Source of the DNA: Nitrospirota bacterium
GTDB lineage: Bacteria; Nitrospirota; UBA9217
Length of the DNA stretch: 64,000 nucleotides
Assembly: GCA_963741205.1 (NCBI GenBank)
Contig: CAVUHW010000015.1
Coordinates: 128,001 to 192,000 of the forward strand
Direction of reading: 5' to 3'
Each line of letters begins with the position of its first letter. Positions within the stretch are counted from its first letter, which is position 1. Positions 15,396 through 42,103 of the stretch are shown here, one piece after another. The notes below the pieces were generated by a model. That model did no database searches. It was given only the letters and a program-made list of their open reading frames with translations, and was not told the DNA's origin. The position numbers and the translations under genes are program-made.

Positions 15396-16639
15396 ATGGC
15401 ACTGGTAAAGCCTCACGGTAAAAAGAAGAAGCTCATGCCGCTTCTTCTGGCAGGAACGGCCCTGCAGAAAGAGCTCAAGAAGGCCAAGACCCTGAAGCAG
15501 CTCAAGATCTCCTCGCGCGAGACCGCAGACCTCGTGATGATGGGCATCGGCGCGTTCACCCCGCTCACCGGCTTCATGACGAAGAAGGACTGGAAGGGCG
15601 TGTGCGACAAGTACAAGATGGCGGACGGCACGTTCTGGCCGGTCCCGGTGACGCTCTCGGCGACCCCGGAGTTCGCCGAATTCGCTCAAGAAGAACGAAG
15701 AGATCACCCTCGTGGACGAAGAATCGGGCACGATCATGGCCACCATGAAGGTGGCCGAGAAGTACGCCATGTCCAAGTCCGACAAGGAGCACGAGTGCAA
15801 GCAGATCTTCCGGACAGTCGATGTTGCAGGTCACCCGGGCGTGCAGAAGGTCATGGGCCAGCCTGATTTCAACCTGGCCGGTCCGGTGAAGGTCCTCTCC
15901 GAGGCCCACTTCCCCGAGACCTTCAAGGGCATCTACATGACCCCGGTCCAGACCCGCAAGATGTTCGAGGAGAAGGGCTGGAGCACGATCGCGGCGTTCC
16001 AGACCCGGAACCCCATGCACCGCTCGCATGAGTACCTTGCCAAGATCGCCATCGAGACCATGGACGGCGTGCTGATCCACCAGATCCTGGGCAAGCTCAA
16101 AGAAGGCGATATCCCGGCCGATGTCCGCGCCGATGCCATCAACACCCTCATGGAGAAGTACTTCGTGAAGGACTCCGCCATCCAGTGCGGCTATCCCATG
16201 GAAATGCGCTATGCCGGGCCGCGCGAGGCGCTGCTCCATGCGCTCTTCCGGCAGAACTTCGGCTGCAGCCACCTGATCGTCGGCCGCGACCATGCCGGCG
16301 TGGGCGACTACTACGGCCCGTTCGATGCCCAGAAGATCTTCGACGATATCCCGAAGGGCGCGCTCGAGACCCAGCCCCTGAAGATCGACCATACGTTCTA
16401 CTGCTTCAAGTGCGACGGCATGGCCTCCATGAGGACCTGCCCCCACAGCAAGGAAGACCGGCTCATGCTGTCCGGCACCAAGCTCCGGAAGATGCTCTCC
16501 GAGGGCGAGAACGTGCCCGATCATTTCAGCCGCCCCGAAGTGCTCGAGATCCTCAAGAAATACTATGCCGGCCTCACCGAGAAGGTGGAGATCAAGCTGC
16601 ACGCCCACGCCGAGGGCACGCATACGGAGAAGAAGGTAA
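15396..16639 (+). CDS. sat: Sulfate adenylyltransferase (dissimilatory type); frameshift ~15680 and probably just before the stop
   Basis: [47 protein letters not shown]; TAA 16637-16639 is in frame if one extra G is removed. Confidence 0.95.
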
Positions 16640-16702
16640 CGCACGGCACAACGACTGCAAGATGCAGTTTACTACATTCTATAGATAGGAGGTTACAGAA
16701 AC

Positions 16703-17134
16703 ATGCCGAGTTATGTGATTACAGAGAAGTGTGACGGCTGCAAGGCGCAAGATAAGACTGCTTGCCAGTATATCTGCCCGAACGACCTCATGACCCTGAA
16801 CAGGGATCTCATGAAGGCCTTCAACCAGGAGCCGGAGCAGTGCTGGGAGTGCTACAACTGCGTGAAGATCTGCCCGCAGCAGGCGATCGAGGTCCGGGCC
16901 TACCAGGATTTCGCCCCCCTGGGCGCGAACGTGATCCCGATGAGGGGCACGGACTCCATCATGTGGACCATCAAGTTCCGGAACGGGATCCTCAAGCGGT
17001 TCAAGTTCCCGATCAGGACCACTGCCGAAGGCTCGGTCGATCCCTACAAGGGCAAGCCTGAAGCGGATTTTGCGAAAATCAAACAGCCGGGCTTCTTCAC
17101 TACGTCGAAGCCGATGCCGGTAATCAAGAAATAA
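16703..17134 (+). CDS. aprB: Adenylyl-sulfate reductase beta subunit
   Basis: [36 protein letters not shown]. Confidence 0.97.
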
Positions 17135-17147
17135 GGAGGAACTACAA

Positions 17148-19192: not shown

Positions 19193-19205
19193 GAACATTC
19201 ACAAC

Positions 19206-19233
19206 TCCGGGGAGGGCATTGCCCTTCCCGGAG
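19206..19233 (+). terminator. Stable hairpin after aprA (terminator or mRNA stabiliser)
   Basis: tccggggagggca-t-tgcccttcccgga, short U-tract. Confidence 0.5.
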
Positions 19234-19238
19234 ATTTT

Positions 19239-19349
19239 ATTGAAAATTGAAAATTGGAAATTTCAAATTGAAATCGAGGGAAAAGGATCTACCGTTCTTT
19301 TCTTCAAATTTAAAATTTCCAATCTTCAATTTCCAATCTCCAACTTTCA
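19239..19349. repeat. Heptamer periodic palindrome between aprA and qmoA
   Basis: (attgaaa)-like x5, ~30-nt spacer, (ttccaat)-like x6. Confidence 0.8.
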
Positions 19350-19382
19350 CGGTTATACTGCCTTAAGGAGGAATAGGATATC

Positions 19383-20634
19383 ATGGCGGAAAATAAGGTG
19401 TTGGTTGTCGGCGGGGGCTTTTCCGGCCTCACGGCGGCGGTAGAAGCCGCGGAGGCGGGTTCCGATGTGATCATCGTGGAAAAGAACGCCTATCTCGGCG
19501 GCCGGGTGACGCAGCTGAACAAGTACTTCTGGAAACTCTGCCCGCCGAACTGCGGCCTCGAGATCCAGTACAAGCGCATCAAGAACAACGGCCAGGTCAA
19601 GATCTATACCCTGGCCGAGGTGGAGAAGATCTCCGGCACCGAGGGCAACTTCGACGTGACCATCAAGATACAGCCCCGGTTCGTGAACGAAAAGTGCACG
19701 GGCTGCAACAAGTGCGCGGAGGCCTGCGAGATCGAGCGGCCGAACGACTTCGATTTCGGCATGAGCAAGACCAAGGCCGCCTACCTCCCTCACAACCAGG
19801 CCTTCCCGCTCCAGTACGTCATCGACAGCAAGGTCTGCAAGGGCGCGGCCTGCGCCAAGTGCGCCGAGGCCTGCAAGTACGACGCGATCCACCTCGACAT
19901 GAAGCCCGAGACCGTGAACGTGAAGGTCGGCGCCGTGGTCATGGCCACGGGCTGGAACCCCTACGATGCGACGAAGATGGACAACCTCGGGTTCGGCAAG
20001 GTCCAGAACGTGATCACGAACATGATGATGGAGCGGCTGGCCGCACCCAACGGCCCCACGGCCGGGCAAGGTCGTGCGTCCCTCGGACGGCAAAGAAGTG
20101 AAGAACATCGCCTTCGTGCAGTGCGCGGGCTCCCGCGACGAGAACCATCTGGCCCATTGCTCCTATATCTGCTGCCTGGCGTCCATCAAGCAGGCGACCT
20201 ATGTTCGCGAGCTCTATCCCGATTCCAAGGCAAAGATCTTCTATATCGACATGCGGACCCCCGGTCTCTACGAGAACCGGTTCTATACCAAGATCAAGGA
20301 AGACCAGAACGTGTCCTTCCTCAAGGGCAAGGTAGCCAAGATCGAGCAGGCGGAGAACGGCGACGTGAAGGTCACCGCCGAGGACATCCACGGCGGCGGC
20401 AAGGTCACCGAGACCTTCGACATGGTCGTCCTGGCAACGGGCATGCAGCCCTCGACAGAGTCCCTCAAGGGTGCGGGAATTACACCGACCGACGACGGGT
20501 TTGTGGACCAGGCAACGCTGCCCGCGGGCATCTATGCGACCGGGACGCTCAAGACCCCCGTTGACGTGGCGCGGTCCGCGCAGGATGCCACCGGCGTGGT
20601 CATGAAGAGCATCCAGAGCTTGAGGAGGAAATAA
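19383..20634 (+). CDS. qmoA: QmoA (HdrA-like flavoprotein); frameshift ~20063
   Basis: VVGGGFSG, KLCPPNCGLE, FVQCAGSRDENHLAHCSYICC; directly follows aprBA. Confidence 0.92.
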
Positions 20635-20636
20635 GG

Positions 20637-22874
20637 ATGGAGAAGAAATTCGGCGTATATATCTGCAAGGGATGCGGCATCAAGGACGCGATGGACGTTG
20701 AGAAGGTCGCCGGCGCGGCCAAGAAGGTCCAGAACTACAAGTTCCACGACGTCCTGTGCAGCCCCGAGGGCGTTCAGCTGATAAAAGACGATATGGCGAA
20801 GGAAGGCGTGAATACGATCATCATCGCCGCCTGCTCTCCCCGCGTCAAATATCGAAGAATTCGATTTTCCCGGCGCCATCGTCGAGCGCGTCAACATCCG
20901 CGAGTTCGTGGCCTGGACCATGGAGCCGAACACGGACGCGACGAACGATGCGGCCTACGATTACCTTACCATGGGCATCGTGAAAACCCAGAAAGGCGAC
21001 CTGCCGGAGCCGAACATCCTCCCGGACCTGAACAACACGATCCTGGTGATCGGCGGCGGCATCGCCGGCATGACCGCCGCGCTCTCGGCCGCCGGGGCGG
21101 GCGAGAAGGTCGTTCTCGTCGAGAAGGACGCCCAGCTCGGCGGCTTCGTGAACAAGCTCTACAAGAAGATCCCGACCGGTTCCTACTTCAATAAGCCGCT
21201 CATCGTGGACACCGACATCGACAAGACCGTGGCCGAGGTCGAGACCAACCCGAACATCAAGGTCTACAAGTCAACGACCGTGACAAAGACCGACGGTCAG
21301 CCCGGCCTCTACGACGTGACGCTCTCGAACGGCGAGACCATGAAGATCGGGGCCATCGTCATGGCCTCTGGCTGGAAGCCCTACGACGCGACCAAGCTCG
21401 ATTACCTGGGCTACGGCAAGTTCAAGAACGTCGTCACGAACCTCGAGCTCGAGGAGATCGCCAGGAAGAACAACGGGAAGCTCCTTCGTCCCTCGGACGG
21501 AAAGCCGGCCCTCAAGGTCGCCTTTATCCAGTGCGCGGGCCAGCGCGATCCGAACCATCTTCCCTACTGCTCGTCCATGTGCTGCGCCACGTCGCTCAAG
21601 CAGGCCCAGTATGTCCGGCAGAACGAGGACGCCCTTGCCATGATCTTCTACAAGGACATCAGGACGCCGGGCAGGACCGAGCTTTATTACAAAGAGGCCC
21701 AGAACAATCCCGGCGTGATGCTCACCAAGGCGGACGTGACCGGCGTGTCCGACGCGGGGAACGGCAACATGTTCGTTGAGATGGAGAACACCCTTTTCGG
21801 CCTGAAGACCGGCGAGAAGGTCAAGGTGGAGGCGGACCTCGTGGTCCTTGCCACGGGCATGGTCCCGACCACGCGCTGGCCCCAGGAATACGCTGACGGC
21901 CTGACCAAGGCGGCGGGTCGGCGGCGACGAAGCCAAAAAGAATTACCTCGAGCAGACGCCCAAGCCGGATTACATCCTGAACCTCGGCTATCGCCAGGGA
22001 CCGGAAATCCCGACCCTCGAAGGGGCGTCAGGTTTCGCCGACTCGAACTTCATCTGCTTCCAGTATGAGACGCGCCGGACCGGCATCTACGCCGCAGGCG
22101 GCGTGCACCAGCCCATGAACATGGCCGAGGCGCAGGAGGACGGGGCCGGCGCGGCGTTCAAGGCCATCCAGGCCATGGACCACGTGGCGCGCGGCGTCGC
22201 GGTCCATCCCCGCGCCTGGGACGTCACGTTCCCCGATCCGATGCTCATCAAATGCACGGCCTGCAAGCGCTGCACGGAAGAGTGCCCCTTCGGCGCCATC
22301 GACGAGGACGAGAAGGGCATCCCCAAGTACAACCTCAACCGGTGCCGCCGGTGCGGCACCTGCATGGGCGCCTGCCCCGAGCGCATCGTGTCCTTCAAGG
22401 ACTACAGCGTGGACATCGTCGGCTCCATGCTCAAGTCGATCGAATACTCCGATGATGAGGACAAGTCCGACGATCATCTGCCTCGTCTGCGAGAACGACT
22501 CCTACCCGGCGCTCGACACGGCGGCCATTGCCGGAAAGAAGATCGATCCGGCATTCCGGTTCATTTCCATGCGCTGCCTGGGCGGCATGAACCTAGTGTG
22601 GGTTGCCGACGCGCTGTCCAAGGGCGCCGACGGCATGCTGCTTCTCGGCTGCAAGTTCGGCGAGAACTATCAGTGCCACTTCGTCAAGGGCAGCGAACTT
22701 GCGAACACCCGCTTCAGCAAGGTCAGCGAGACCTTGAACCGGCTCCAGCTCGAATCCGAGCGCGTCCAGCTGATGCAGATCGCCATCAACGAGTACGATA
22801 AACTGCCGGACATGCTCAATGAGTTTGCTGCCAGGATCAAAGAGATCGGACCGAATCCGTTCAGGACCATGTAA
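20637..22874 (+). CDS. qmoB: QmoB (HdrA-like with ferredoxin and MvhD domains); frameshifts ~20850, 21917, 22455
   Basis: GVYICKGC, AACSPR, QCAGQRDPNHLPYCSSMCC, CTACKRCTEECP, CENDSYP, GCKFGENYQCHF. Confidence 0.92.
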
Positions 22875-22950
22875 ACAGAATGCGGATTGCGGAGTGCGGA
22901 ATTAGAAGAAATAAAATCACTCCTAACACTGTAATTGGAGGATGAGATAT

Positions 22951-24131
22951 ATGTCAGAAGCAACGGTTATCAAACCTGACTTGCAGTTCGTGAACGAGAT
23001 CATCAAGGGCGGCGGCGAGTCGCTGAAGAAGTGCTACCAGTGCGCCACCTGCTCGGTGGTCTGCAACGTGACCCCCGAGGGGAACCCCTTCCCGCGCAAG
23101 GAGATGGTCCTCGCCCAGTGGGGCCAGAAGGACAAGCTCATCACGAGCGCCGACGTGTGGCTCTGCCACCAGTGCAGCGACTGCACGGCCTACTGCCCGC
23201 GCGGCGCCAAGCCCGGCGAAGTGCTGAACGCCATCAGGAAGCAGAGCATCAAGCACGTGGCGATGATGCCCTTCTTCGCGAAGATCGCGACCGGACGCGA
23301 AGCTCCTGCCGATCCTCTTCGCCATCCCCATGGCGCTTTTCTACGTCATCCTGATGGTGCTCGGGAACTACGGACATTACGAACATCCCAAGGGCGGAAG
23401 GCGGCATCATGGCCTACCACAAGTTCGTTCCCGTGCCGGTGATCGACACTGTGTTCATCCTGACGGCGATCTTCGCCGCCGTGTCGGCCTTCGTGGGGAT
23501 CAAGCGCCTCTGGAACGGCATGAAGGCCCAGGCTGGCCTCGATGCCGTCCAGCGGCAGTCTCGTCGGGAGACATCATCGCCTCCGTCACCCAGATCCTGG
23601 CCCATTCGAAGTTCGCCGACTGCAACGTGAACCGGACGCGTCAGTGGGGCCACATGCTCCTCTTCTACGCCTTTGCCGGGCTTGCGGTCGTCACGACCTG
23701 GGCGATCATCTACCTCTATGGCTTTGAACTCCTCGGCATTCAGCCGTTCGGGCCCTTCCATTTCGGAGAATCGCCGTACCCGAACAGCGATCCCGTGAAG
23801 ATCCTTGCCCTCGCGAGTTCCATCGCCTTCGCCGCCGGCGTCGTGATCCTCCTCATGAACCGGTTTGCCCAGGCCGGAAAGGCGGGCATGGGTTCCTATT
23901 TCGACTGGATCTTCCTCACGATCGTGATCGGCGTCGGCGCAACGGGCATGCTCGCCTGGGCGCTCCGGCTGGCCGACATGAACGCCGGCTACCTGGTGTA
24001 CTATTTCCACCTGGTGTTCATCTGGTCGCTTGTTCGCCTATGCGCCGTACTCGAAGTTCGCGCACCTGTTCTACCGCACGACCGCGATGGTGTTCGCGAA
24101 ACGCAGGTACCGGCAGCGAGTAGCGCGATGA
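22951..24131 (+). CDS. qmoC: QmoC (Fe-S plus heme b membrane subunit); about four indels, end approximate
   Basis: CYQCATCSVVC, PFPRKEM, CHQCSDCTAYCPRG, HMLLFYAF, YYFHLV, PYSKFAH. Confidence 0.9.
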
Positions 24132-24180
24132 AGAAGCTAAAAGACCTCGCTTTCGCACCATTATTTACGGAGTCGAAGCC

Positions 24181-24628
24181 ATGAAAGTCAAAGAACTGTT
24201 AAGCATCAAGGGAATTGAGTGCTTCAGCATCACGAGCGACCAGTCGCTGCTCGACGCGGCAAAGCAGATGACGGAGTGCAACATCGGCGCGCTCCTGGTC
24301 ATGGACCGGGGATCTCTCGTCGGCATCATCACCGAGCGCGACATCGTCAAGAACACCGCGAATGAAGCGACGCAGTGCAGGGACGTGAAGATCAAGGACG
24401 TCATGAGCACGAACCTGCTGGTGGTCAAGCCCGGCGACGACCTCGATTACGTCATGGCCATCATGATCCAGAACAACATCCGCCATACGCCGGTCATCGA
24501 GGAGAGCGGGCTGGTCGGGCCTTCTTTCCATGCGGGATGTGGTCCGGGTGCTGGTAAAGAACCTGAAGGCCGAAAACCATTACCTGAAAGACATGATCGG
24601 CGGCAAGTTCGGCGAAGTGGGCGATTAA
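24181..24628 (+). CDS. Stand-alone tandem CBS-domain protein; frameshift ~24519
   Basis: NIGALLV...GIITERDI, IRHTPV...GLLSMRDVV; TAA 24626-24628 in corrected frame. Confidence 0.85.
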
Positions 24629-24796
24629 GGACGCGGCGTTTCTAAAACGTTCACGGAGGGAGGGATGCCGGGAGGAAGGACGACAGGCTGTCATGTAGCA
24701 GTGCCTGCCTCATCGCGTTCAAGCGATGACCGGGAATCATTAAATCTGAGAGACGTTATTTTCTTATAGAATCTTAATTTAAAAGGAGGAGCAATA

Positions 24797-26878
24797 ATGA
24801 GTAACACGATTCTTTTTGCCCTGGTATGCGGCGTTGCCGGCGTCATCTACGGCATCATAACCGCGATCTGGGTGAACAAGCAGGATGCAGGCAATCAGAA
24901 AATGATCGACATTTCCAACGCAGTGAAGGAAGGCGCTAATGCGTTCCTGGCGCGCGAGTACAAGACAGTTGCAATGGTTGCAGTTGATTCTGGTCCTTAT
25001 CCTGGCGTTCGTTCCCGCCCTCGGTATGTGGGCAGCCGCCGGATTTATCATCGGTACCGTGGGTTCCGCCCTTGCCGGCTTCATCGGCATGTGGGTGTCG
25101 CTCCGTGCCAACGTTCGTACGGCAGCGGCAGCGAGCAAAGGCCTCCAGGCCGCGCTCAGCCTTGCGTTCAAGGGCGGCTCCGTGACCGGCATCATGGTCG
25201 TGGGCCTCGGCATCATCGGCCTTGCAGGTTTTTACCTCATCGCCAAAACGTTTGCTCCGGCTGAGCAGGTATCCACCGCGCTCATCGGGCTCGGCTTCGG
25301 CTGCTCGCTCATGAGCGTGTTCGCCCGTATCGCGGGCGGCATCTACACCAAGGCCGCTGACGTGGGCGCCGACCTCGTGGGTAAGGTTGAGAAGAACATC
25401 CCCGAAGACGATCCGCGCAACCCGGCCGTGATCGCCGACAACGTGGGCGACAACGTGGGCGACTGTGCCGGTATGGCCGCCGACCTCTATGAGACCTACA
25501 CGGTGACCCTCGTGGCCGCCATGCTCCTCGCCAAGACCGTGTTCGGCGCAAGCAGCCCCTGGATCGAGTTCCCGCTCATGCTCGGCGGCGTTTCGATCAT
25601 CGCTTCCATCGTGGGCACCTACTTCGTAAGACTCGGCAAGAACAACTACATCATGGGCGCCCTGTACAAGGGCCTTGCCGTTGCAGGCGTTATCGCGGCA
25701 GTTGCGTTCTACTTCGTGGCCAAGAGCTTCATCGACGGCCTCGGCGCCAATGCCGGCGTATTCACGGCGAACACCGTGTTCTTCATCTCCCTCATCGGCC
25801 TTGCCCTCACCGGCCTGATCGTGTGGATCACCGAGTATTTCACCGCTAAAGAGTATTCCCCGGTGCAGCACATTGCACAGGCGAGCCTGACCGGCCACGG
25901 CACGAACGTGATCGCCGGACTCGCAGTCAGCATGAAGTCCACCTCAGCGCCGGTGCTCGTGATCGTTGCCTCGATCCTCGGCGCTTACTGGCTTGGCGGC
26001 GGATTCTCCGGCCAGGCGAACGCAGCATCCGGCGGCATCTTTGCCATCGCGCTGGCAGCGGTGTCCATGCTCTCCATGACCGGTATCGTTGTGGCCATCG
26101 ACTCCTACGGCCCGATCACGGACAATGCGGGCGGCGTCGCTGAAATGGCCGGGCTCCCGAAAGAGATCCGCGATATCACGGATCCCCTCGATGCGGTCGG
26201 CAACACCACCAAGGCAGTGACCAAGGGCTATGCCATCGGCTCCGCGGCCCTTGCCGCTTTGGTGCTGTTCTCGGAATATTCACGCTCCTTCGGCACAACG
26301 ATCCTGTTCGACCTTTCGAACCCCATGGTTCTTTGCGGCCTGTTCATCGGCGGCCTGCTCCCCTACTACTTCGGCGCGCTCCTTATGGAGTCCGTGGCTA
26401 AGGCAGCAGGCGGCGTGGTGGAGGAAGTTCGCAGACAGTTCCGCGAGATCAAGGGCATCATGGAAGGCACCGGCAAGCCGGAGTACGGCAAGTGCGTTGA
26501 CATCGTGACCAAGAGCGCCATCCATGAGATGATGCTCCCGGCGCTCCTTCCGGTGGTCGTACCGGTCGCTGGTGGGTCTCCTCCTGGGCAAAGAAGCCCT
26601 GGGCGGCGTGCTCATCGGCGCCATTGTGACCGGTCTGTTCCAGGCCATCGCCATGACCTCCGGCGGCGGCGCATGGGACAATGCCAAGAAGTCCTTTGAA
26701 GACGGCGTCACGGACAGCAAGGGCGTCGTGCACAAGAAGGGCAGCGACGGCCACAAGGCCTCGGTAACCGGCGACACGGTCGGCGATCCTTACAAGGATA
26801 CCGCGGGCCCGGCCATCAACCCGATGATCAAGGTCATCAACATCGTTGCGCTTCTGATCGTTCCGTTGATCAAGTTAA
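24797..26878 (+). CDS. hppA: Membrane-bound H+-translocating pyrophosphatase, K+-independent type; frameshifts ~24987, 26570
   Basis: [45 protein letters not shown] (Lys = K+-independent), [14 protein letters not shown]. Confidence 0.95.
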
Positions 26879-26901
26879 TACGCAGCATATCGTATACCAG
26901 C

Positions 26902-26935
26902 AAGGCTGCCCCACTCGATGGGGCAGCCTTTTTTT
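26902..26935 (+). terminator. Intrinsic terminator after hppA
   Basis: aaggctgcccca-ctcga-tggggcagcctt plus U-tract. Confidence 0.85.
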
Positions 26936-26998
26936 ATCGCTGCCGCGCCGCATTCGCTGCTTGAAATTTAAGCGTAAAGTGGTATTATTCACAGGTTT

Positions 26999-27493
26999 AT
27001 GCGCGATGTTGAGGTATTAATCAAGGCCGGTTGCTCCCCTGATGTCGTGGCCCACTGCAGATGGTTTCCCGCACGGCGTTATCGATTGCCGAACGTATGA
27101 CGGTTTCGGTCGACCGGGAACTGGTACGGTTGGGCGGCCTCTTCCACGACATCGGCAGGTCGAGGACGCACGGGATCGAACATGCTGTGGCAGGGGCGGA
27201 GATCGCACGGAGTCTCGGCTTTTCAGACGGCGCTCGTCAATATCATCGAACGTCACATCGGAGCAGGCATAACCGCCGCAGAGGCAGAGCGGCTCGGGCT
27301 TCCCAAAAAGGATTATCTGCCGCTGACACCGGAGGAGAAAGATCGTGTCCTACGCCGATAATCTGTCAGCGGGGTGCGGGAAATGCCGTTTTATGAAGCG
27401 CTCGACCGGTTCAAGGACATCCTCGGACCGGACCATGAAGGCGTCGAGCTTTTCATAAAGCAGCATCATGAGATACAGGGGTGGATGAAGTGA
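26999..27493 (+). CDS. HDIG-domain metal-dependent phosphohydrolase (TIGR00295-like); several indels
   Basis: Reconstructed [69 protein letters not shown]. Confidence 0.8.
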
Positions 27494-27570
27494 ACCAATA
27501 TTCGGCATTGCGGAATGCGGAATAAAAGACGAGGAATAAGACAAAGCAATAAGGATCAGAAGAGGATGTC

Positions 27571-28541
27571 ATGAAAGACAAAAAGACAAAATGGTAGCGG
27601 AAGATTTTATGTCGAACCGCTCAAAAAAAGCAGCTCCGACAAGGTCGTGCCCGTGAAACTGACGGAGAACAGCAGGTTCAAATTCCGCTGCCACAAGGGG
27701 GTCAGGTGTTTTACCGCCTGCTGCAGCAACATCAACATCGTGCTGCCGCCCTACGACCTGCTGCGCCTCAGGAAGACGGCTCGGCATGACGCTCCGAGGA
27801 CTTCATCAACGAATACTGCGAGATCGAGATCCTTGCCAAGACCCTGCTGCCGGTGATCACGCTCAGGATGCGGGACGACGAGAAAAAGAGTTGCCCCTTC
27901 CTGACGCCCGACGGCTGTACGGTATACGAGGACCGTCCGAACATCTGCCGGTATTATCCCGTGGGCATGGCGACCTTGAGAAAGAAGGACGCGGAGGGCG
28001 GCAAGGACGAGTTCTACTTCATGACCAAGGAGGACCACTGCAAGGGTTTCGAGGAGGACAAGGAGTGGACCATCGACGAGTGGCGCAAGGACCAGGAGGC
28101 GGACCTGCTACGATGAAATGAACCGCGGCTGGATGGACATCCTGATCAAGAAGAAGTCCTTCGGCGAGAAGGAGTTTCCGGACATCAAGAACCAGATGTT
28201 CTTCATGGTCAGCACGAACACCGACTATTTCCGCGAGTTCGTTTTCGGAAGCAGCTTCCTTGAGACCTACGACATCCCTGCCGGAGCGGATCGAGAAGGT
28301 GCGGACAGACGATGCGGAACTCCTGAAGCTTGCCTACGAGTGGCTCCGGTCGTCGATGTTCGCGGAGGAGACCCTGAAGTTCCGGGAAGGGGTCCTCGAG
28401 GCGCGCAAGGACCGGGCCGATGCAACCATGAGGAAGGTGTACGGGAAGAAAGAGAAGGGGCAGATCGGAGATATGATTGGACGTCAGGAAGTGTCACGCC
28501 CCTATGTGCCATCTTGCAACATTAAGCTCATTTCATCATAG
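27571..28541 (+). CDS. YkgJ-family cysteine-cluster protein; several indels, ends approximate
   Basis: FRCHKGVRCFTACC, LPPYD, CPFL...GCTVYEDRPNICRYYPVG, HCKGF. Confidence 0.8.
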
Positions 28542-29261
28542 ATCGCATTGCCTATCGTAATGCCCTGATCGATAAATTCCGGGCCGTATCGCTTGCCGGT
28601 ATCGGTCCGGAACGTTTCCTTGATTTTTTCGATGCCTTTCATTTTTTCCTTAAAGATCCGGTGAAGCGCTTCCGGACGGCGTGTTGTGCGCATCCACCAT
28701 GAGCCAGAGCGTGGTTGTGAAATTCTCCGGCCCCCACCTGAACTTGTCGGCATCGTAGAGCGCGTCGCTCACGAGCTGTCCCGCCGCGTCGTCGCGATCA
28801 AACGTTTCCTGAAACGCTTCATGGTTCCTGATGGCATCCGCGATGTACTGCCGGTCCCGGAGACCCATGCCAAGACTCGCCAGAATTTTTTCCGCTTCGA
28901 TGCTGCCCCGCACCGCGTGGTCCTGCTCTTTTCGCTTGATGTCGTGGAGCAGTCCGGCGATGATCGCCGCCGTGAAAAGGGTATCGACGTCCGAATTCAC
29001 GAGCCCGTTTTCCCGCGCTTCAATGAGGACGATGGCCCCCGCGTCGCGCGCAACCGATTCGCAGTGGCAGAGACCGTGAGCGCATTCCAGTTCAGACGCG
29101 TCAAGGTGCTCCCTGCACCTGCTGACGGTCTCGTTCGACAGGAGCGTTTCATTTGCACGGCGTACGGCGGCTTCATGCCTTTCGTAGAACGGTGGTTTCG
29201 GCAGGGTACCCGCGACCCGGTGCGCCGTGGCGCGCAGTTTTTGATAGAGCGGCAGGCTCAT
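28502..29261 (-). CDS. HD-domain phosphohydrolase; frameshift ~28677
   Basis: HGLCH, AGLLHDIKR, IRNHEAF, LYDADKFRWGPENF. Confidence 0.85.
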
Positions 29262-29391
29262 GGGCATCTATATTAGACGTTCTCCACGAACCTTGTCAAG
29301 ACGAGTTTTTTGACCATATCTTCAGATTGACAGGTCTTCGCTACATAGGGTAATATGGCCGTACTTTTTCGGGTTTTGAAAGGAGTCTTCC

Positions 29392-30964
29392 GTGTCCGAC
29401 ATCCACAGCGAACGAATATTGATTCTCGACTTCGGGTCCCAGTATACCCAGCTCATCGCTCGGCGCGTGCGCGAGTCAAAGGTCTACTGCGAAATCTATC
29501 CTTACAACGCCGGGCTCGATAAGATCAAGGTCCTTCCGGCCGAAGGGGCTGATCCTTTCCGGCGGCCCGTCGAGCGTCTATGATCCCGGCGCGCCGCTCA
29601 TCGACAAACCGCACCTTGAACTGGGCGTACCAGTACTCGGCATCTGTTACGGCATGCAGCTTTTGACCCACGTGCTGGGAGGCGCCGTTGCCAAGTCGGC
29701 AAAGCGCGAGTACGGCAGGGCGGAGTTGAACATCGACGACTCAGCCGGTCTATTTGAAGGTCTCGGCTCCCAACCCGCAGCCCGCAACCCGCAACCCGGA
29801 ACCGTTGTCTGGATGAGCCACGGCGACCGTATCGAGAAGATGCCGGAAGGGTTCCACGCGATCGCCCACACGAATAATTCCCCGACTGCCGCAATGGCCG
29901 ATGAGAAGCGGAAGTTTTACGGCGTTCAGTTCCATCCCGAAGTCGCGCATACGCCCCAGGGCGTACAGATCCTCAGGAACTTCGTCTACACGATCTGCGG
30001 GTGCAAACCGTCGTGGACCATGGCCTCATTCGTTGACTATTCCGTCGAGGAGATACGAAAGGCCGTGGGAAGCAAACAGGCGGTGTGCGGCCTCTCGGGC
30101 GGCGTCGATTCCTCGGTCGCCGCCGTTCTCGTGCACAAGGCCATCGGCAAGCAGCTTACCTGTATCTTCGTGAACAACGGCGTGCTCAGGAAGGACGAGG
30201 CGGAGAAGGTGCAGCATTCCTTTAAAGACATGGGGCTGAACCTCAAGTACGTGGACGCCTCGCAGGAGTTTCTCACCCGCCTGAGCGGGGTCGAGGACCC
30301 TGAGAAAAAACGGAAGATCATCGGCAACACCTTCATCGAGGTCTTCGAGCGGGAAGCTCATGCCGTGGGCGGGGCCGAGTTTCTCGTCCAGGGCACGCTG
30401 TACCCGGACGTGATCGAGAGCGTCTCGTTTAAAGGTCCTTCTGCGGTCATCAAGTCCCACCACAACGTCGGAGGCCTGCCGGAAAAGATGAAGCTGAAGC
30501 TCGTGGAGCCGCTCAGGGAGCTGTTCAAGGATGAGGTCAGGGCCATCGGACGCGAGATGAAGATGCCCGACGACATCATCGACCGGCAGCCCTTCCCCGG
30601 ACCGGGTCTCGCCATCCGCATCCTGGGAGAGGTGACCGAACCGAGGCTCGCCATCCTGCGCGAGGCCGACGCCATCGTGATCGAGGAGATCAAGAAGGCG
30701 GGTTTGTACAAGCAGATCTGGCAGTCCTTTGCCGTGCTGCTCCCGATCAAGACCGTGGGCGTAATGGGCGACGAGAGGACCTATGAGAACGTCGTCGCCA
30801 TCCGCGCAGTCACGAGCCAGGACGGCATGACCGCGGACTGGGCGAAGATCCCCTATGATCTTCTGGGCGTCATGTCGAACCGGATCATCAATGAAGTAAA
30901 AGGCGTGAACCGCGTGGTCTTCGACATCTCGTCCAAGCCGCCGAGCACGATCGAGTGGGAATGA
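29392..30964 (+). CDS. guaA: GMP synthase (glutamine-hydrolysing); frameshift ~29530
   Basis: [58 protein letters not shown]. Confidence 0.97.
29771..29798 (+). repeat. Heptamer tandem repeat (caacccg) x4 inside guaA
   Basis: caacccg cagcccg caacccg caacccg, translated QPAARNPQP. Confidence 0.85.
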
Positions 30965-31058
30965 GCTAAGCAGGCGCGGAAACAGCGGGACCAGGAGACG
31001 CCTCGATCAAAAATGTTTTTACGGCACATCGCCGCGTCAGATTCTCGGCAACAAATTC

Positions 31059-31778
31059 ATGCAGGACAAGATGCAAAAGCTTAAGAGCTGTCTGAACATA
31101 GGGCTGGTCCTCCTGTCGTCGGACTTCCGCGTCATCGGCATGAACGATTATGCGAAGATGCTCCTCGCTCCGGCCATGGGGGAAGGGCTGGGAAAAAATC
31201 TTCTGGACTACCATCCCCGCAAGACCCAGGAAAAGATCAAGGGTCTCCTGCAGGAACTGAGCGAGGCCGAGGCCGACACGCCTTTTGCCATGGTCATCGA
31301 CGTGCTGAACAAGGTGCTGATGATCAACCTCTCCCGGTTCGAGATCGTCATACCTGTGCCGCGGCCCCATTGGGCCATGACCTTCATCGATGTGAGCGAA
31401 CAGACTGGCGCCGCCATGAACACGAGCAGCGGCAGAGTGGAGCTCAAAAAGTTCCCGGTCTACGACAACGGTGTTTGCCGTTTTCTCGACGCCGATTCGG
31501 TCTATTGCTTCCGGGCCGACGGTAATTATTGCAAGGTATTTACCGTTGACCGGTCCTATTACCTGCACCTGAGCTTGAAGGTCATCCTCCAGCGGTATAC
31601 AGGGCCGAACTTTTTCCGGGTCCACAAGAGCGCTGTCGTGAACCTGAAGCACGTGCGGGGAATTTCCGTGTCTTCCGACGGACAGGCCATGATCACCTTT
31701 GACCGCGAAACCATCCCGTCCGTCCCCATCGCCCGCCGTAAACTGGCCGAGTTCAAGGAGGCCCTTGCCATTCTATAG
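31059..31778 (+). CDS. rcoM: PAS-LytTR transcription factor, RcoM-like CO sensor
   Basis: PAS with DYHP and PFAMVI (RcoM His/Met heme-ligand positions), LytTR domain ADGNY...FFRVHKSAVVN...VPIARR; adjacent to cooS. Confidence 0.75.
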   Translation: MQDKMQKLKSCLNIGLVLLSSDFRVIGMNDYAKMLLAPAMGEGLGKNLLDYHPRKTQEKIKGLLQELSEAEADTPFAMVIDVLNKVLMINLSRFEIVIPVPRPHWAMTFIDVSEQTGAAMNTSSGRVELKKFPVYDNGVCRFLDADSVYCFRADGNYCKVFTVDRSYYLHLSLKVILQRYTGPNFFRVHKSAVVNLKHVRGISVSSDGQAMITFDRETIPSVPIARRKLAEFKEALAIL

Positions 31779-31779
31779 A

Positions 31780-31899
31780 CCGTTCATCACCGTCTATCTG
31801 CCGTTCGTCACGAACTGTCTAAACCCCTTGCCCGCTCATCACCATTTTTTTACCGTTTGTCAACGATTTCTTGAACCCTCTTCCCCTCCGATGTAATCT
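31780..31899 (+). promoter_or_regulatory. Four LytTR-type direct repeats and the cooS promoter
   Basis: ccgttcatcac (31780), ccgttcgtcac (31801), ccgctcatcac (31832), ccgtttgtcaa (31853); TTGAAC-N17-TAATCT at 31871-31899. Confidence 0.75.
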
Positions 31900-31973
31900 C
31901 AGTACAGGCAAAGCCCGCATTGTCGAAGAACGACGGGCTCTGCGAAAACAGGTCTCGACAGGAGGGCAAAGCT

Positions 31974-33878
31974 ATGTCGATCAAGGAAGCGAAGGAAAAG
32001 GAATTTGACGCGCAGAAGCAGTCGATCCATCCCGATGCCTGGGCAATGCTCGACAAAGCAAGGAAGGATGGCGTGGAAACGGCCTGGGACCGGCTGCAGA
32101 CGCAGACCCCCCACTGTACGTTCTGCGACCTCGGCCTGACGTGCAAAAACTGTATCATGGGGCCCTGCCGCATAAGTCCCAAAAAGGACGGCAAAATGCA
32201 GCGGGGCGTGTGCGGGGCCGATGCTGATGTCATTGTTGCACGGAATCTCGGCAGGTTCATCGCCGGAGGGGCAGCAGGCCACTCCGATCACGGCCGCGAC
32301 CTGATTGAGACCCTCGAGGCTGTTGTCGAGGGCCATGCGGAAGGCTACACGATCCGCGATGAGCCGAAGCTGCGGCGGCTTGCCCAAGAGTTGGGGATCA
32401 AAACGGAAGGCAGGGGATTGATGGCTGTGGCCGAGGACTTCGTGGAAGAATGCTTCAAGGACTTCGGCAGCAGGAGAAAAGAAGTCGCTTTTCTGAAGCG
32501 GGCCCCGGAAAAGCGAAGGGAGATATGGAAGAAGCTCGGCATGACCCCCCGCGGCGTTGACCGCGAGATCGCCGAAATGATGCACCGCACCCACATGGGC
32601 TGCGACAACGACGCAACAAACACCCTTGTCCACGCGGCGCGAACGGCCTTGTCCGACGGCTGGTCGGGTTCCATGATCGGCACCGAACTTTCGGACTGCC
32701 TCTTCGGTACCCCGACCCTCCGCAAGGCGCAGGTCAATCTCGGCGTAATTAAAAAAGACCAGGTCAATATTCTCGTGCACGGCCACAACCCGGTGGTGTC
32801 GGAGATGATTCTGATGGCGGTGAACGACGTCGACCTGATCGCCCTGGCCGCTGAAAAAGGCGCTGTGGGCATCAACCTCGCGGGTCTGTGCTGCACAGGC
32901 AATGAACTGCTGATGCGCCAGGGCATTCCCATTGCGGGCAACCACCTGATGACCGAACTTGCCATTGTGACCGGCGCGGTGGAGGCCGTGGTGGTGGACT
33001 ACCAGTGCATCATGCCGAGCCTGGTCCAAGTCTCCGCCTGCTATCATACCAAGTTTATCACCACCTCGGAAAAGGCGCGGTTTACCGGCGCTGTCCACTA
33101 CGAGGTTAAGCCGCACAACGCGCGTGAACAGGCCCGAGCCATCGTCCGGCTGGCGATCGAGGGCTTCGAGAAGCGCGACCAGTCGCGCGTCGAGATCCCC
33201 GGCGAGCCCGTGGATATTATGACCGGGTTTTCCAACGAGGCGATCCTCGCGGCCCTCGGTGGCACGCTGACCCCGATCATCGATGCGGTCAAAGCGGGCA
33301 AGGTCCGCGGCATCGTCGGCGTGGTGGGCTGCAACAATCCAAAGATCAAGCAGGACTCGGCCAACGTCACCCTTATCAAGGAGCTGATCAAAAAAGACAT
33401 CCTTGTCCTGGTGACCGGATGCTGCACCCCGGCGGCAGGCAAGGCAGGACTCCTCGTTCCAGAAGGCATCGAGATGGCCGGGCCTGGGCTCAAAGAAATT
33501 TGCGGCGCCCTCGGCATACCGCCGGTGCTTCACGTCGGGAGCTGCGTGGACAATTCAAGGATATTGCAGCTCTGCGGTCTTGTGGCAAACGAACTGGGCG
33601 TTGATATCTCCGATTTGCCAGTCGGAGCATCGTCGCCGGAATGGTACTCGGAAAAGGCGGCAGCCATCGGCACCTATGCCGTGGCGTCGGGCATCTACAC
33701 CCATCTCGGCCTGCCGCCCAACGTCCTGGGCTCGAAGACCGTTACCGATATCCTCCTGAACGGGCTCGAAGGCCTGGTCGGAGCGTCCTTTGTCGTTGAA
33801 CCGGACCCGGTCAAGGGCGCGGTCCTTCTCGATGCGCGGATAGCGAAAAAGAGGGTCGCCCTCGGTCTCACGCCGTAG
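31974..33878 (+). CDS. cooS: Anaerobic Ni-Fe carbon monoxide dehydrogenase catalytic subunit
   Basis: CTFC...CKNCIMGPC, GVCG, HGHNP, LCCTGNE, DYQC, GCNNPK, TGC, GSCVD, SEKA; SD ggaggg before ATG 31974. Confidence 0.97.
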   Translation: MSIKEAKEKEFDAQKQSIHPDAWAMLDKARKDGVETAWDRLQTQTPHCTFCDLGLTCKNCIMGPCRISPKKDGKMQRGVCGADADVIVARNLGRFIAGGAAGHSDHGRDLIETLEAVVEGHAEGYTIRDEPKLRRLAQELGIKTEGRGLMAVAEDFVEECFKDFGSRRKEVAFLKRAPEKRREIWKKLGMTPRGVDREIAEMMHRTHMGCDNDATNTLVHAARTALSDGWSGSMIGTELSDCLFGTPTLRKAQVNLGVIKKDQVNILVHGHNPVVSEMILMAVNDVDLIALAAEKGAVGINLAGLCCTGNELLMRQGIPIAGNHLMTELAIVTGAVEAVVVDYQCIMPSLVQVSACYHTKFITTSEKARFTGAVHYEVKPHNAREQARAIVRLAIEGFEKRDQSRVEIPGEPVDIMTGFSNEAILAALGGTLTPIIDAVKAGKVRGIVGVVGCNNPKIKQDSANVTLIKELIKKDILVLVTGCCTPAAGKAGLLVPEGIEMAGPGLKEICGALGIPPVLHVGSCVDNSRILQLCGLVANELGVDISDLPVGASSPEWYSEKAAAIGTYAVASGIYTHLGLPPNVLGSKTVTDILLNGLEGLVGASFVVEPDPVKGAVLLDARIAKKRVALGLTP

Positions 33879-33994
33879 CATTTAATCCGGAGATTGAATG
33901 CAGGGTCCGCCCGTCATATTGCGGGAGGTGAACCGGGAGGTGTTCGACATCTCTTGCAAGTCGCCGAGTACGATCGAGTGGGAGTAATTTTTTA

Positions 33995-34117
33995 CCGCAG
34001 AGAGCACAGAGAAAATCGAAGAGCAAAATAAGATTAAACCGCTGGGGCGCAAGGGTCGCGAAGTAGTTTCTTGAAAAAGAACCTGCTTCCCTTTGCGCTC
34101 TTTGCGTTTTTGCGGTA
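33995..34117. repeat. 8/9-mer periodic palindrome elements
   Basis: cgcagagag-cacagag arm; cgcaagggt-cgcgaag arm inverted to ctttgcgct-ctttgcgt-ttttgcgg; related to 1487-1599. Confidence 0.6.
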
Positions 34118-34167
34118 AAATTTTATTTTCATTGGCAACGCAGGGCCGGGAAAGGTAAACAAACACG

Positions 34168-34347
34168 ATGACCGCCGTTGATTTCATTCTTATAGGTCTT
34201 GCCGCAGTCGCAGGCGGTATGGTGAACGCGCTCGCGGGCGGAGGCACGCTGATCACGTTCCCCATGCTTACCGCGGTCGGCGTTCCGCCGGTTGCGGCGA
34301 ACGTGACGAACACGGTCGGCCGCCATCTACTTTGTGCGTTGAACTGA
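34168..34347 (+). pseudogene. Truncated TauE/SafE (TSUP) transporter, N-terminal ~50 aa only
   Basis: [50 protein letters not shown] then unrelated sequence and a stop. Confidence 0.75.
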
Positions 34348-34413: not shown

Positions 34414-35088
34414 ATGAAACGTGTCTTTTTTGCAATTATGGCGGCATTGCTGCTGAGCATGTTGAGTGGAGGTGCACTGGCCCAGGAAAAGGCGGGGGTG
34501 GAAGTGGGGCTCAAGATGTTTCTGAACCAGTGGACAGTGAGCGCCCCGGGCGCGTCGGACGTCTCATCGGATAGCACGATGCTTCTCGGGCCGGCTGTCG
34601 AAATCAAGTTCAACAATCCTTTTTTTGCGGCAGCACAGTACCTTGTTTCCACCTCCGATTATAGATTCAACGACCCGAATTTCAAGTCCAACCGGCAGGA
34701 TGCGGAAATCGCAATCGGCTACTTTGTCATTCCCGGTTTCGGACTTGTGGCGGGATACAAGAACTCATCGGCGCAGAACAGGGTATCAGGATCGAGATCG
34801 ACTCTGGACGGACCGCTTCTCGGGATACTGGGAATAGCGCAGGCTGACCAGTTCCTTTCATTCTACGGCAAGCTCGACTATCTCTTCACCCGGTTTAAGG
34901 GGTCGGATGCCTTGGGCGAATTTCGGGAAGACAGCCCGGGATGGATATTCGAATTCGGCCTCAGGTATGCTTTTACCAAGGCATTCCTGGGCGATATAGG
35001 CTATCGGTACGAAACGAACAAAGGAGTCGATACAGGTTTCCGGGACACCTTTTCGGGGTTGACCTTAAGCGGGATGCTCACGTTTTAG
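34414..35088 (+). CDS. Outer-membrane beta-barrel protein
   Basis: Signal peptide, alternating amphipathic strands, C-terminal Phe. Confidence 0.7.
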   Translation: MKRVFFAIMAALLLSMLSGGALAQEKAGVEVGLKMFLNQWTVSAPGASDVSSDSTMLLGPAVEIKFNNPFFAAAQYLVSTSDYRFNDPNFKSNRQDAEIAIGYFVIPGFGLVAGYKNSSAQNRVSGSRSTLDGPLLGILGIAQADQFLSFYGKLDYLFTRFKGSDALGEFREDSPGWIFEFGLRYAFTKAFLGDIGYRYETNKGVDTGFRDTFSGLTLSGMLTF

Positions 35089-39296: not shown

Positions 39297-42103
39297 TTAT
39301 AGTATTTTCTTCAGAAACTGCCCGGTGTACGATTCTTTCGACTTGGCAACGTCCTCGGGCGCGCCCTGGATGACGATCTGGCCGCCGCGGTCTCCCCCTT
39401 CGGGGCCCAGGTCGATGATCCAGTCCGCTGTCTTAATGACATCGAGATTGTGCTCGATCACGACGACCGTGTTGCCTGCGTTCACCAGTTGGTTCAGCAT
39501 GTCCAGGAGTTTCTGCGTGTCGGCGAAGTGAAGGCCCGTCGTGGGCTCGTCCAGGATATAAAAAGTGCGGCCCGTTGCGCGGCGCGAGAGTTCCTTCGAG
39601 AGCTTCACGCGCTGCGACTCGCCGCCCGAGAGGGTCGTGGCGGACTGGCCAAGGGTTATATAGCCCAGCCCCACGTCCAGGAGCGTCTGGAGCTTGGACT
39701 TCACCGGAGGAACGTTCTGAAAGAATTCATGGGCCTGCTCCACGGTCATGGCGAGCACGTCTGCGATGCTCTTCCCCTTGAACTTGATGTCGAGGGTCTC
39801 GCGGTTATAGCGGCTGCCGTGGCAAACGTCGCAGGTTACGTACACGTCGGGAAGGAAGTGCATCTCGATCTTGATGAGCCCGTCGCCCTCGCAGGCCTCG
39901 CACCTGCCGCCCTTGACGTTGAAGCTGTAGCGGCCGGGCTTGTACCCGCGCATGCGCGAGTCCGGAAGCTGCGCAAAGAGGTCGCGCACGGGCCCGAACA
40001 CGCCGGTGTAGGTCGCGGGATTGGAGCGGGGCGTCCTGCCGATGGGGGACTGGTCGATGTCGATCACCTTGTCGATGTGCTCCAGGCCCTTGATGTCCTT
40101 GTGCCTGCCGGCGCGCTCCGTGGAGCGGTAGAGGCGCTGCGCGAGGGCGCGGTACAGGATGTCCACGACCAGCGTGCTCTTGCCCGACCCCGACACGCCC
40201 GTCACGCAGGTGAAAACGCCCAGGGGGAACTTGACCGTAATATTCTTGAGGTTGTTCTCGGACGCCTCGACGACGCTGATGGATTTCTCGGAGTTCCTGC
40301 GGAGCGGCGGCACCTCGATGAAGGCCTTTCCCGAAAGGTACTGCCCGGTGAGCGAATGTTCGATCCGCTGGACCTCTTCCGGCGTGCCCTGGGCCACGAT
40401 CTCCCCGCCGTGCACGCCGGCCCCCGGGCCCATGTCGATCACGTGGTCGGCGGAGCGGATGGTCTCCTCGTCGTGCTCCACCACGAGCACGGTATTGCCG
40501 AGGTCGCGGAGGCGGAACAGGGTGTCGAGGAGCCTGCGGTTGTCCCGCTGGTGCAGGCCGATCGAGGGCTCGTCCAGAATGTACAAGACGCCGACCAGGG
40601 ACGATCCGATCTGCGTGGCGAGGCGGATGCGCTGGCCTTCGCCCCCGGAGAGGGTGGCCGAACCGCGGTCCAGGGTGAGGTAATCGAGGCCCACGTGCAC
40701 CATGAACCCGAGACGCTCCCGGATCTCCTTCAGGATCCGCTGGGCGATGGCGGTGTCCTTTTCCGTGAGCGTGATACCACCGAAGAAGGCGAGCGCCTGC
40801 TTGATGCTCATGCGCGTCACCTCGTCGATGCCGAGGCCCGCCACCTTGATTGAAAGCGATTCTTTCCTCAAGCGGCTCCCGCCGCAGTCCGGGCAGGTCT
40901 GGTAGCTCATGTACTGTTCGAGCTCCCACTGGGTGGCGAAGGAGTCGGTCTCGTCGTACCGCCTGCTTCAGGATTTGAAGGATACCCTCGAAGGGTTCGC
41001 AAGCCGCGGCCTTCCCGGTCCGTCCTGACACCGATTTCACGACCGCCCTCGTCCATGCCGAAAAGGAGGGCCTTCTGCTGGGCCGGCTTCAGCTCCTTCC
41101 ACGGCCGGTTCACGTCAAAGCCGCAGCCCTGCGCGAGCGAATCGAGCATCTGGAAATACTGGAACGACGTGCGCTTGGCCCAGGGCTTGATCGCCCCTTC
41201 CCGGAGCGAGAGGTTGGGGTTCGGGACGATAAGGTCGGGATCGAACTCCAGGAGTCCGCCGAGACCGTCGCAGGTCTGGCACGCCCCCTGGGGGCTGTTG
41301 AAGGAGAAGCTGTTCGGTGCGATCTCGGGGTAGCTGATCCCGTCCACGATGCAGGAGAGCTTCTCGCTGTAGAGCAGGTCCTTCTTCTGGTCCACCAGGT
41401 TCACGAGCACGATGCCGTCGGCCTGGCGGAGCGCGGTCTCGATGGACTCGGCGAGCCTTCGCTCCACGCCGGCCTTCACCACGAGCCGGTCGATCACGAT
41501 CTCGATGTCGTGCTTCTTTTTCTTGTCCATCGGGACCGGCTCGGAAAGCTCCTTGATCACGCCGTCGATCCGCGCACGAACATAGCCCGAGGCGCCCGCG
41601 GCCATGAGCTCCTTCTTATATTCTCCCTTCCTGCCCCGCACGATCGGCGCAAGTACCTGGATGCGGCTGCCCTCGGGCAGGGCCATGACGCTGTCCGTGA
41701 TCTGCTGCACGGTCTGGGCGGCGATCTCCCTTCCGCATTTGTAACAGTAGGGCTTGCCGATCCTCGCGTACAGCAGGCGCAGGTAATCGTACACCTCGGT
41801 CACCGTGCCCACGGTGGAACGGGGGTTCTTGCTCGTCGTCTTCTGCTCGATGGCGATGGCGGGAGAGAGACCGTCGATGGAATCCACGTCCGGCTTGTCC
41901 ATCTGGCCCAGGAACTGGCGGGCGTAGGCAGAGAGGCTCTCGACGTACCGGCGCTGTCCTTCGGCATAGATGGTGTCGAAGGCCAGCGACGATTTGCCGG
42001 AGCCCGAAAGACCGGTGATCACGACGAGCCTGTCCCGCGGGATTTCAAGGTCTATATTCTTGAGGTTGTGCTGACGGCAGCCTTTTAATACGATTTTGTC
42101 CAT
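39297..42103 (-). CDS. uvrA: Excinuclease ABC subunit A; frameshift(s) ~40960-41050
   Basis: [43 protein letters not shown], Zn fingers, LDEPTTGLH. Confidence 0.97.

Follow-up and report, generated by a model that had tools for sequence, protein, structure and literature searches.

Recombination within the guaA tail as the possible origin of an rcoM-cooS islet in a Nitrospirota genome

How could two genes for the sensing and oxidation of carbon monoxide (CO) come to lie between the GMP synthase gene and a second copy of the last codons of that same gene? The question is raised by a 64,000-nucleotide stretch of contig CAVUHW010000015.1 (assembly GCA_963741205.1, positions 128,001 to 192,000; this whole stretch is hereafter called the window) of a Nitrospirota bacterium, in which guaA is followed by a gene of a predicted RcoM-type CO sensor (rcoM), by cooS, assigned to the Ni,Fe CO dehydrogenase (Ni-CODH), and by a decayed repeat of the last guaA codons. 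We consider recombination within the guaA tail to be the best reading of the origin of this islet, because the repeat is preserved at 51 of 60 positions, one relative (locus L003) has an empty site and another (L002) an islet at the same site, the neighbours of guaA are variable, the guaA tail is a hotspot known from the literature, and a duplicated guaA tail was found in a further genome (L014). According to this reading, the 3-kb accessory islet would have been inserted into the chromosome through recombination in the final 60 nucleotides (nt) of guaA; the gene would have kept a working tail to the left of the islet (attL-like), and the tail displaced to its right (attR-like) would now be decaying.

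The original prediction, made from the nucleotide sequence of the window, had claimed that the guaA tail recurs downstream of cooS and that nothing but a CO-related regulator, its operator and cooS lies between the copies, and both claims hold. The two 60-nt copies align without gaps, and six of their nine differences, as read from this alignment, are synonymous or replace one stop codon by another, again as predicted. The reading frame is kept in both copies, each of them being closed by a stop codon; copy 2 reads VNREVFDISCKSPSTIEWE before its stop. Chance is excluded as the source of the repeat, since the runner-up among the ungapped matches to the 60-mer on both strands of the whole window has only 34 identical positions (mean 15.5, sd 3.7). 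The edges of homology are sharp: just upstream of position -60 only 3 of 15 nucleotides match, and past the stops none do. The copies enclose only the gene of the LytTR-containing regulator and cooS, with 195 nt of repeat-bearing spacer between the two; long antisense open reading frames (ORFs) inside the islet (e.g., 31899-33533, minus strand) were treated as shadow ORFs and left out of the domain scan.

For comparison, a GuaA-based scan was made with one genome per species, and 80 loci were kept. Seven of them (L001-L007), all from metagenome-assembled genomes (MAGs) of uncultured Nitrospirota, are close relatives with 82-91% amino-acid identity, the remainder being at or below 67%. Copy 1 is identical to the guaA ends of these seven relatives at 49-56 of 60 positions, and, when polarised with the relatives, seven of the nine differences between the copies prove to be derived on copy 2. 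The three amino-acid changes of copy 2 fall at positions occupied by V in 76, S in 78 and P in all of the 80 GuaA ends, none of which has the altered residues. Because derived changes have thus hit near-invariant residues of GuaA, copy 2 is a displaced, non-functional and decaying fragment, which is drifting neutrally and is not a gene. An excess of synonymous changes was considered as a sign that copy 2 stems from a foreign functional copy and was rejected, as four of the seven polarised changes are synonymous, which is not significant (P ~0.1, binomial).

Comparison of the regions downstream of guaA revealed an empty site (L003) and a variety of other neighbours, and no integrase-bearing version. 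The rcoM-cooS pair does not stand at guaA throughout the lineage, the loci L003, L006 and L001 being devoid of the module (Table 1). The segment that L003 lacks at its empty site has copy 2 as its right-hand boundary, and is thus bracketed exactly by the repeat. The right-hand neighbours of guaA are of six kinds in the eight genomes (the window and L001-L007); tauE holds this place, or did so formerly, in four of these (the window, L002, L003 and L006). The relatives L005 and L004 lack, beside guaA, the 29 kb corresponding to 30965-59926 of the window, and the break of synteny is located exactly at the guaA stop.

Table 1. Features of the guaA-rcoM-cooS region of the window and arrangement of the guaA 3' flanks in the close relatives.
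Feature	Position	Strand	Description
guaA (GMP synthase)	29392..30964	+	two frames, +1 frameshift near 29530
Repeat copy 1	30905..30964	+	attL-like; functional final 20 guaA codons; 51/60 identical to copy 2
guaA-rcoM spacer	30965..31070	+	only the last ~50 nt conserved with L002 (local alignment, p=0.002 vs shuffles)
Predicted rcoM-type one-component CO sensor	31071..31778	+	235 amino acids; N-terminal heme-type PAS, C-terminal LytTR
Putative operator	31780..31876	+	four direct-repeat boxes, then -35-like TTGAAC (31871-31876)
cooS, monofunctional Ni,Fe CO dehydrogenase catalytic subunit	31974..33878	+	634 amino acids; 195 nt downstream of the regulator
Spacer from cooS stop to copy 2	33879..33927	+	49 nt
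Repeat copy 2	33928..33987	+	attR-like; decayed guaA-tail duplicate
Long imperfect hairpin	33988..34125	+	138 nt, directly 3' of copy 2; minimum free energy -61.5 kcal/mol, z = -6.5
tauE/TSUP 5' fragment	34169..34345	+	~56-59 codons; ancestral right-hand guaA neighbour
L003			guaA stop, 85 nt, full tauE (256 amino acids), then genes of window 35.1-43.3 kb; empty site
L006			guaA, inverted tauE, then same downstream genes as L003; without module
L001			cation-efflux gene replaces tauE, then same downstream genes with 4.4-kb insert; without module
L002			guaA-rcoM-cooS, 150 nt, full tauE; colinear with window 24175-33878 (9.7 kb), 82.6% identity
L005, L004			guaA joined to moaC-moaA-pfk, located at 59.9-63.9 kb in the window
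L007			PH-domain gene right of guaA; islet-less

That the arrangement was produced by a chimeric or mis-joined contig is hardly credible. Frameshifts in guaA, uvrA and the genes of H+-pyrophosphatase and ATP sulfurylase (sat) do speak for an imperfect assembly; however, the independent assembly of L002 has the same order guaA-rcoM-cooS-tauE, and repeats of 60 nt with 85% identity do not cause mis-joins, copy 2 moreover differing from copy 1 by substitutions only.

The 3' end of guaA had been put forward as an integration site of genomic islands, and it is indeed a published target of tyrosine-recombinase elements (PMC4844618; PMC5704250); those described in these sources include Tn5801-like islands, ATE-1, the Brucella suis IncP island and GIsul2. 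The latter source also describes CIMEs (cis-mobilizable elements) as decayed integrative and conjugative (ICEs) or integrative and mobilizable elements (IMEs) which have kept attL and attR and lost the genes for integration and transfer. At our locus the 3' end of guaA is complete, direct repeats are present at both junctions in the window, and the empty site is seen in L003, as with integrative elements of the guaA tail; as with CIMEs, att-like repeats are retained, although imperfect (85%), and integration and transfer genes are missing. The islet is most likely a remnant of a site-specific integrative element which no longer possesses an integrase or genes for transfer. We would put at about an even chance the more specific proposal of an old, decayed, CIME-like islet that arose by integrase-mediated integration into the guaA tail and subsequent decay.

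Several observations weigh against such an origin, the first of them being the lack of any integrase. Domain scanning of the islet revealed no integrase or other recombinase, and the spacers of the islet, 106, 195 and 49 nt long, are too short to harbour a remnant of such a gene. Nor was an integrase found in the 105 scanned ORFs of the window (22 + 83), in the 48 ORFs that follow guaA in L001-L007 and L014, where the sole gene of a mobile element is that of a DDE transposase (in L004), or in the 96 ORFs adjoining guaA in 69 of the 71 further loci. In the latter set 96 of 130 candidate ORFs were scanned, the 34 omitted being second ORFs, and two loci had no ORF of at least 150 amino acids; in total, scanning of the downstream ORFs of 76 loci (7 close relatives and 69 others, out of the 80 kept) revealed no intact integrative element beside guaA. 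The original prediction, according to which the CO module arrived on an integrative element since stripped of its integrase, can thus be upheld in so far as the module is an accessory insert behind the 3' end of guaA, and not as regards an integrase ever having been present. Since the islet encodes no recombinase, we regard it as a possible relic and not as a member of the Tn5801/GIsul2 kind, and, as no related integrase-bearing element was found, its descent from an ICE or IME is something that we only infer. To the same side belongs the limited similarity of the repeats, which are 85% alike and whose longest identical run is 14 nt.

The lack of an integrase in every place scanned is just what would be expected if the insertion had been duplicative and integrase-free, i.e., if a circularised or looped fragment from a close relative, carrying a guaA tail and rcoM-cooS, had entered by a single homologous crossover of the Campbell type and duplicated the 60 nt. 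A closely related donor would fit the native composition of the islet (see below) as well as the similarity of copy 2, whose best matches are guaA ends from within its lineage (those of the window, L002 and L007, at 51/60 each) and none from a distant one; among the 80 guaA ends no donor better than the own lineage was found (maximum 51/60). General homology would also be expected to give a duplication such as that of L014, which is longer (~86 nt, with weak similarity past the stop). Yet 60 nt is short for RecA-mediated recombination, the end of homology exactly at the stop is better explained by an attP site mimicking the coding tail, and guaA tails are a documented target of integrases; on balance, we consider an integrase-free insertion unlikely.

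A further group of unfavourable observations concerns the age of the islet. Copy 2 is absent from the cooS-tauE spacer of L002, the one other genome seen to carry the islet, where the best match has 23 of 60 identical positions against a null mean of 25.8. Either L002 has deleted ~120 nt including copy 2, or copy 2 arose in the lineage of the window only. If the islet did originate by recombination within the guaA tail, the event would be no younger than the split from the species of L002, and the latter would since have lost the right-hand repeat. The genes of the islet show no sign of a separate or recent arrival, as their divergence from L002 matches that of the flanks: the identity at third codon positions is 71% for rcoM and 67% for cooS, as against 61% in guaA and 46-83% in the other genes of the flanks. 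The GC content of third codon positions (GC3) is 0.771 in rcoM and 0.767 in cooS, with a window mean of 0.775 +/- 0.068; the codon-usage distance of both genes is ordinary, and the composition of the window as a whole is flat, no GC anomaly being found in it. Because of this native composition and flank-like divergence, the islet must be either old or derived from a donor of similar composition.

The phylogenetic background does not help the proposed origin either. Only 2 of the 10 inner branches of the GuaA protein tree are well supported. The tree built from 9 kb of DNA groups the window, at weak support, with L005, L002 and L007 and conflicts with the GuaA tree as to the position of L004 and L005, while the unconstrained tree pairs L002 with the islet-less L007. 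Approximately unbiased (AU) tests rejected neither a clade of the window and L002 (p-AU 0.23) nor a clade of the window, L002 and L007 (p-AU 0.41). The islet-less L006, L003 and L001 branch outside, and, as these three are without the module, a single gain requires fewer events than repeated loss. Since the tree is poorly resolved, the choice between gain and loss rests on parsimony, and a single gain of the islet is to be taken as the parsimonious, though unproven, reading.

The opposite scenario is that rcoM-cooS is ancestral in this sub-lineage and has been lost elsewhere, copy 2 being the product of a later rearrangement in the window only, which truncated tauE and brought in a gene of an outer-membrane protein (OMP). 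The presence of the islet without copy 2 in L002, the equal divergence of islet and flanks, and the remodelling of the region to the right of copy 2 in the window only (the cut tauE and the OMP gene) all agree with it, and the seven derived changes per 60 nt are, by estimate, compatible with an age of copy 2 not exceeding that of the split between the window and L002. We nevertheless find this scenario improbable: copy 2 coincides exactly with the right-hand limit of what the empty site lacks, and rcoM-cooS stands inside the repeats; a clean loss would have to be assumed separately for each of L003, L006 and L001; and a random rearrangement is not expected to copy a coding tail precisely up to its stop.

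Returning to recombination within the guaA tail, a second, independent case of integrase-less cargo bracketed by guaA tails makes the phenomenon known from two phyla, namely Nitrospirota (the window) and Ignavibacteriota. In the Ignavibacteriota MAG (L014, 11201-15599) a second guaA tail, identical at 55 of 60 positions, is located 4.3 kb downstream; the repeat extends ~26 nt further upstream than in the window, with the weaker similarity past the stop already mentioned. The cargo consists of genes for SnoaL, AHSA1 and a GH5 cellulase with a type IX secretion system (T9SS) tail, and includes no integrase. No locus shares the flanks of L014, so that no relative with an empty site was found for it. 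It is tempting to suppose that guaA-tail cassettes represent a recurrent route of insertion for metabolic modules, served in trans or integrase-free, and not mere decay of classical islands; we deem this very doubtful. If it were true, CO oxidation with a sensor of its own would be a plug-in trait.

The product of cooS is, by sequence, a canonical Ni-CODH: it matches TIGR01702 with 689.9 bits (cut-off 478) over residues 18-632, has a Prismane match in Pfam, and aligns to PDB entry 6b6v, which we take to be the Desulfovibrio vulgaris enzyme, with 1006 bits over residues 13-633. Its closest relatives form four clusters at 91-95% identity, followed by sequences at or below 78%; the nearest named relatives (73-76%) belong to Desulfobacterota. 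Neither the maturation gene cooC nor a cooF partner was found near cooS in the window.

The start of the regulator gene is probably at 31071, since in L002 the reading frame further upstream is interrupted by a stop codon, and many homologues are likewise 235 amino acids long. Pfam recognises the LytTR domain (PF04397, E 9e-20) and finds no PAS domain in the protein, and the sequence has no match in PDB at E<=0.01. In the AlphaFold (AF2) model (predicted local distance difference test, pLDDT, 81; predicted template modelling score, pTM, 0.72) the LytTR part matches the folds of 3d6w and AgrA (TM-target 0.76-0.82), and the best non-LytTR fold matches, those of the N-terminal half, are the heme PAS domains of EcDOS (1s66, 1v9z) and FixL. 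Four of 99 homologue matches bear the label RcoM (JGI), and the close RcoM clusters have 82-94% identity. A search of plasmids with the regulator returned three records, all from Burkholderiaceae, with ~28% identity and none of the coo type. A cox-linked LytTR protein from a Paraburkholderia aromaticivorans plasmid aligns over 97% of the length with 29% identity (BLASTP), its positions H75 and M105 corresponding to H48 and M74 of our regulator. As described for Paraburkholderia RcoM, His74 is the proximal and Met104 the CO-displaceable heme ligand, and Cys94 is a ligand of the Fe(III) heme (PMC12358919); we infer that H75, C95 and M105 of the P. aromaticivorans protein are these same residues, with the numbering offset by one. 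In an alignment of 40 sequences the His (H52 there) is invariant and the Met (M78 there) is present in at least 90%. The position of Cys94 falls in a 4-residue alignment gap in our regulator, and this Cys is not known to define the whole family. With its heme-type PAS fold, LytTR domain and His/Met positions, the regulator passes for an RcoM, as far as a sequence and a structural model can tell.

The 8-mers of the four boxes between the two genes start at 31783, 31804, 31835 and 31856, i.e., with start-to-start spacings of 21, 31 and 21 nt, and all four are conserved in register and sequence in L002, while the spacers between them diverge. No complete sigma-70 promoter passed the scan of the region. 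In Paraburkholderia, RcoM1 is described to have three TTCNNGCA repeats with 12-13-bp spacing upstream of the -35 element (PMC11347149). The stretch 31907-31943 in the 5' leader of cooS is stem-forming, with GC-rich arms at ~31912-31917 and 31934-31939, and is conserved between the window and L002. From the RcoM-type sensor and the four conserved boxes upstream of cooS, the module looks self-regulated, as had been proposed. RcoM would bind CO at a His/Met-ligated PAS heme and would then, via its LytTR domain, occupy the four boxes upstream of the cooS promoter, thereby switching on the monofunctional Ni-CODH, which would oxidize CO.

As to the remaining parts of the islet and its right-hand flank, no terminator-like site was found in the spacer between guaA and rcoM, and the 49-nt spacer 33879-33927 shows no similarity to guaA or to L002. 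The hairpin that follows copy 2 is present in a single copy in the window and has no match in Rfam; its right half is common with the cooS-tauE spacer of L002 (local alignment, p=0.002). It could be a terminator or an element resembling repetitive extragenic palindromic (REP) sequences or miniature inverted-repeat transposable elements (MITEs). The sequence after copy 2 has a 15-nt match to that after guaA of L003 (p=0.012) and an 11-nt match in L002 (p=0.008); because 16 comparisons were made, both are only hints. When TauE of L002 and L003, full-length in both relatives, was used in tblastn, only residues 1-56 were found in the window. The tauE fragment is followed by a gene of an outer-membrane beta-barrel protein (34414-35088; GC3 0.644) without a homologue in the 80 loci. 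The truncation of tauE together with the OMP gene is a second, window-specific remodelling adjoining the islet. An Rfam scan of the region 30.8-34.5 kb gave only a chance miRNA match (E 0.76), the sigma-70 and terminator scan gave two terminator-like sites, a smaller number than in shuffled sequences and both of them minus-strand, and no tRNA genes were found in the window.

Among the flanks of the relatives, the 29-kb block missing beside guaA in L005 (8998-9160) and L004 (11293-17705) holds housekeeping genes such as uvrA and the ATP synthase operon. The 6.4-kb insert between guaA and moaC of L004 (11376-17600) encodes a ferredoxin-domain protein, a DDE transposase, a LysR regulator and a DUF1499 protein. 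In L001 (8982-13018) three ORFs without a Pfam match (240, 282 and 822 amino acids) are located between an orf130 homologue and the ferredoxin-thioredoxin reductase gene; all three are absent from the window, L002 and L003.

Within guaA itself, GMP synthase is assigned by Pfam and NCBIfam to 29654-30964, and the N-terminus of the GATase domain is found in the ORF 29392-29583; near 29530 there is one extra base in comparison with L002, L003 and L005. Similar splits occur in uvrA (39297-42103, at 40907-40910), in the gene of H+-pyrophosphatase (24939-26964) and in sat (15351-16734). These frameshifted conserved genes suggest an indel-prone assembly, or else they are real pseudogenes. The region 15351-24184 contains, at the Pfam level, ATP sulfurylase, FAD-binding (possibly Apr-like) ORFs and FAD/Fer4/MvhD-type (Qmo/Hdr-like) ORFs, a gene content that suggests dissimilatory sulfur metabolism.

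If our reading of the locus is right, anaerobic CO oxidation can travel as a minimal unit of sensor plus enzyme. The guaA tail, known as a hotspot in Firmicutes, Actinobacteria and Proteobacteria, is a variable junction in an uncultured family of Nitrospirota too. With its four conserved boxes the putative operator is a concrete target on which the action of a coo-linked RcoM could be tested; in the sources cited here, experimental work on RcoM is described for the aerobic Paraburkholderia proteins only (PMC11347149; PMC12358919). Current views are not overturned, as both the horizontal transfer of Ni-CODH genes (PMC3328121) and the pairing of rcoM with cooS, for instance in Geobacter sulfurreducens, where GSU2099-2095 include cooC, cooF and FNOR (PMC4703632), have been described.

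In comparison with this Geobacter cluster, in which rcoM likewise adjoins the CODH gene, the islet has a lone cooS without cooC, cooF and FNOR. The regulator shares with RcoM of Paraburkholderia xenovorans the one-component architecture of a heme PAS followed by LytTR, the positions of the His and Met ligands and the location of the gene next to that of a CODH, but it is only 29% identical to the Paraburkholderia type and has no equivalent of Cys94. Its putative operator resembles that of RcoM1 in having direct-repeat boxes with a period of ~21 bp upstream of the target promoter, and differs from it in having four boxes in two pairs and of another sequence.

As for mobile elements, the islet is similar to CIMEs in that direct repeats derived from the 3' end of a conserved gene flank a segment consisting of cargo only, without integrase or transfer genes, whereas its repeats are 85% alike instead of near-identical and it comprises only two genes. 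With the tyrosine-recombinase elements of guaA it has in common the targeted gene end, the intact guaA and the direct repeats at both junctions; those elements, however, carry an integrase, usually adjoining guaA, and are 10-25 kb long, with mobility or resistance genes. The repeat of Tn5801 is 11 bp long (PMC4844618), compared with the 60 bp found here without an integrase, and the host phylum Nitrospirota is unlike the hosts of the known guaA-tail elements. For all these differences, neither component is of a new kind, since the hotspot at which the islet lies and the pairing of this sensor with this enzyme are both known already.

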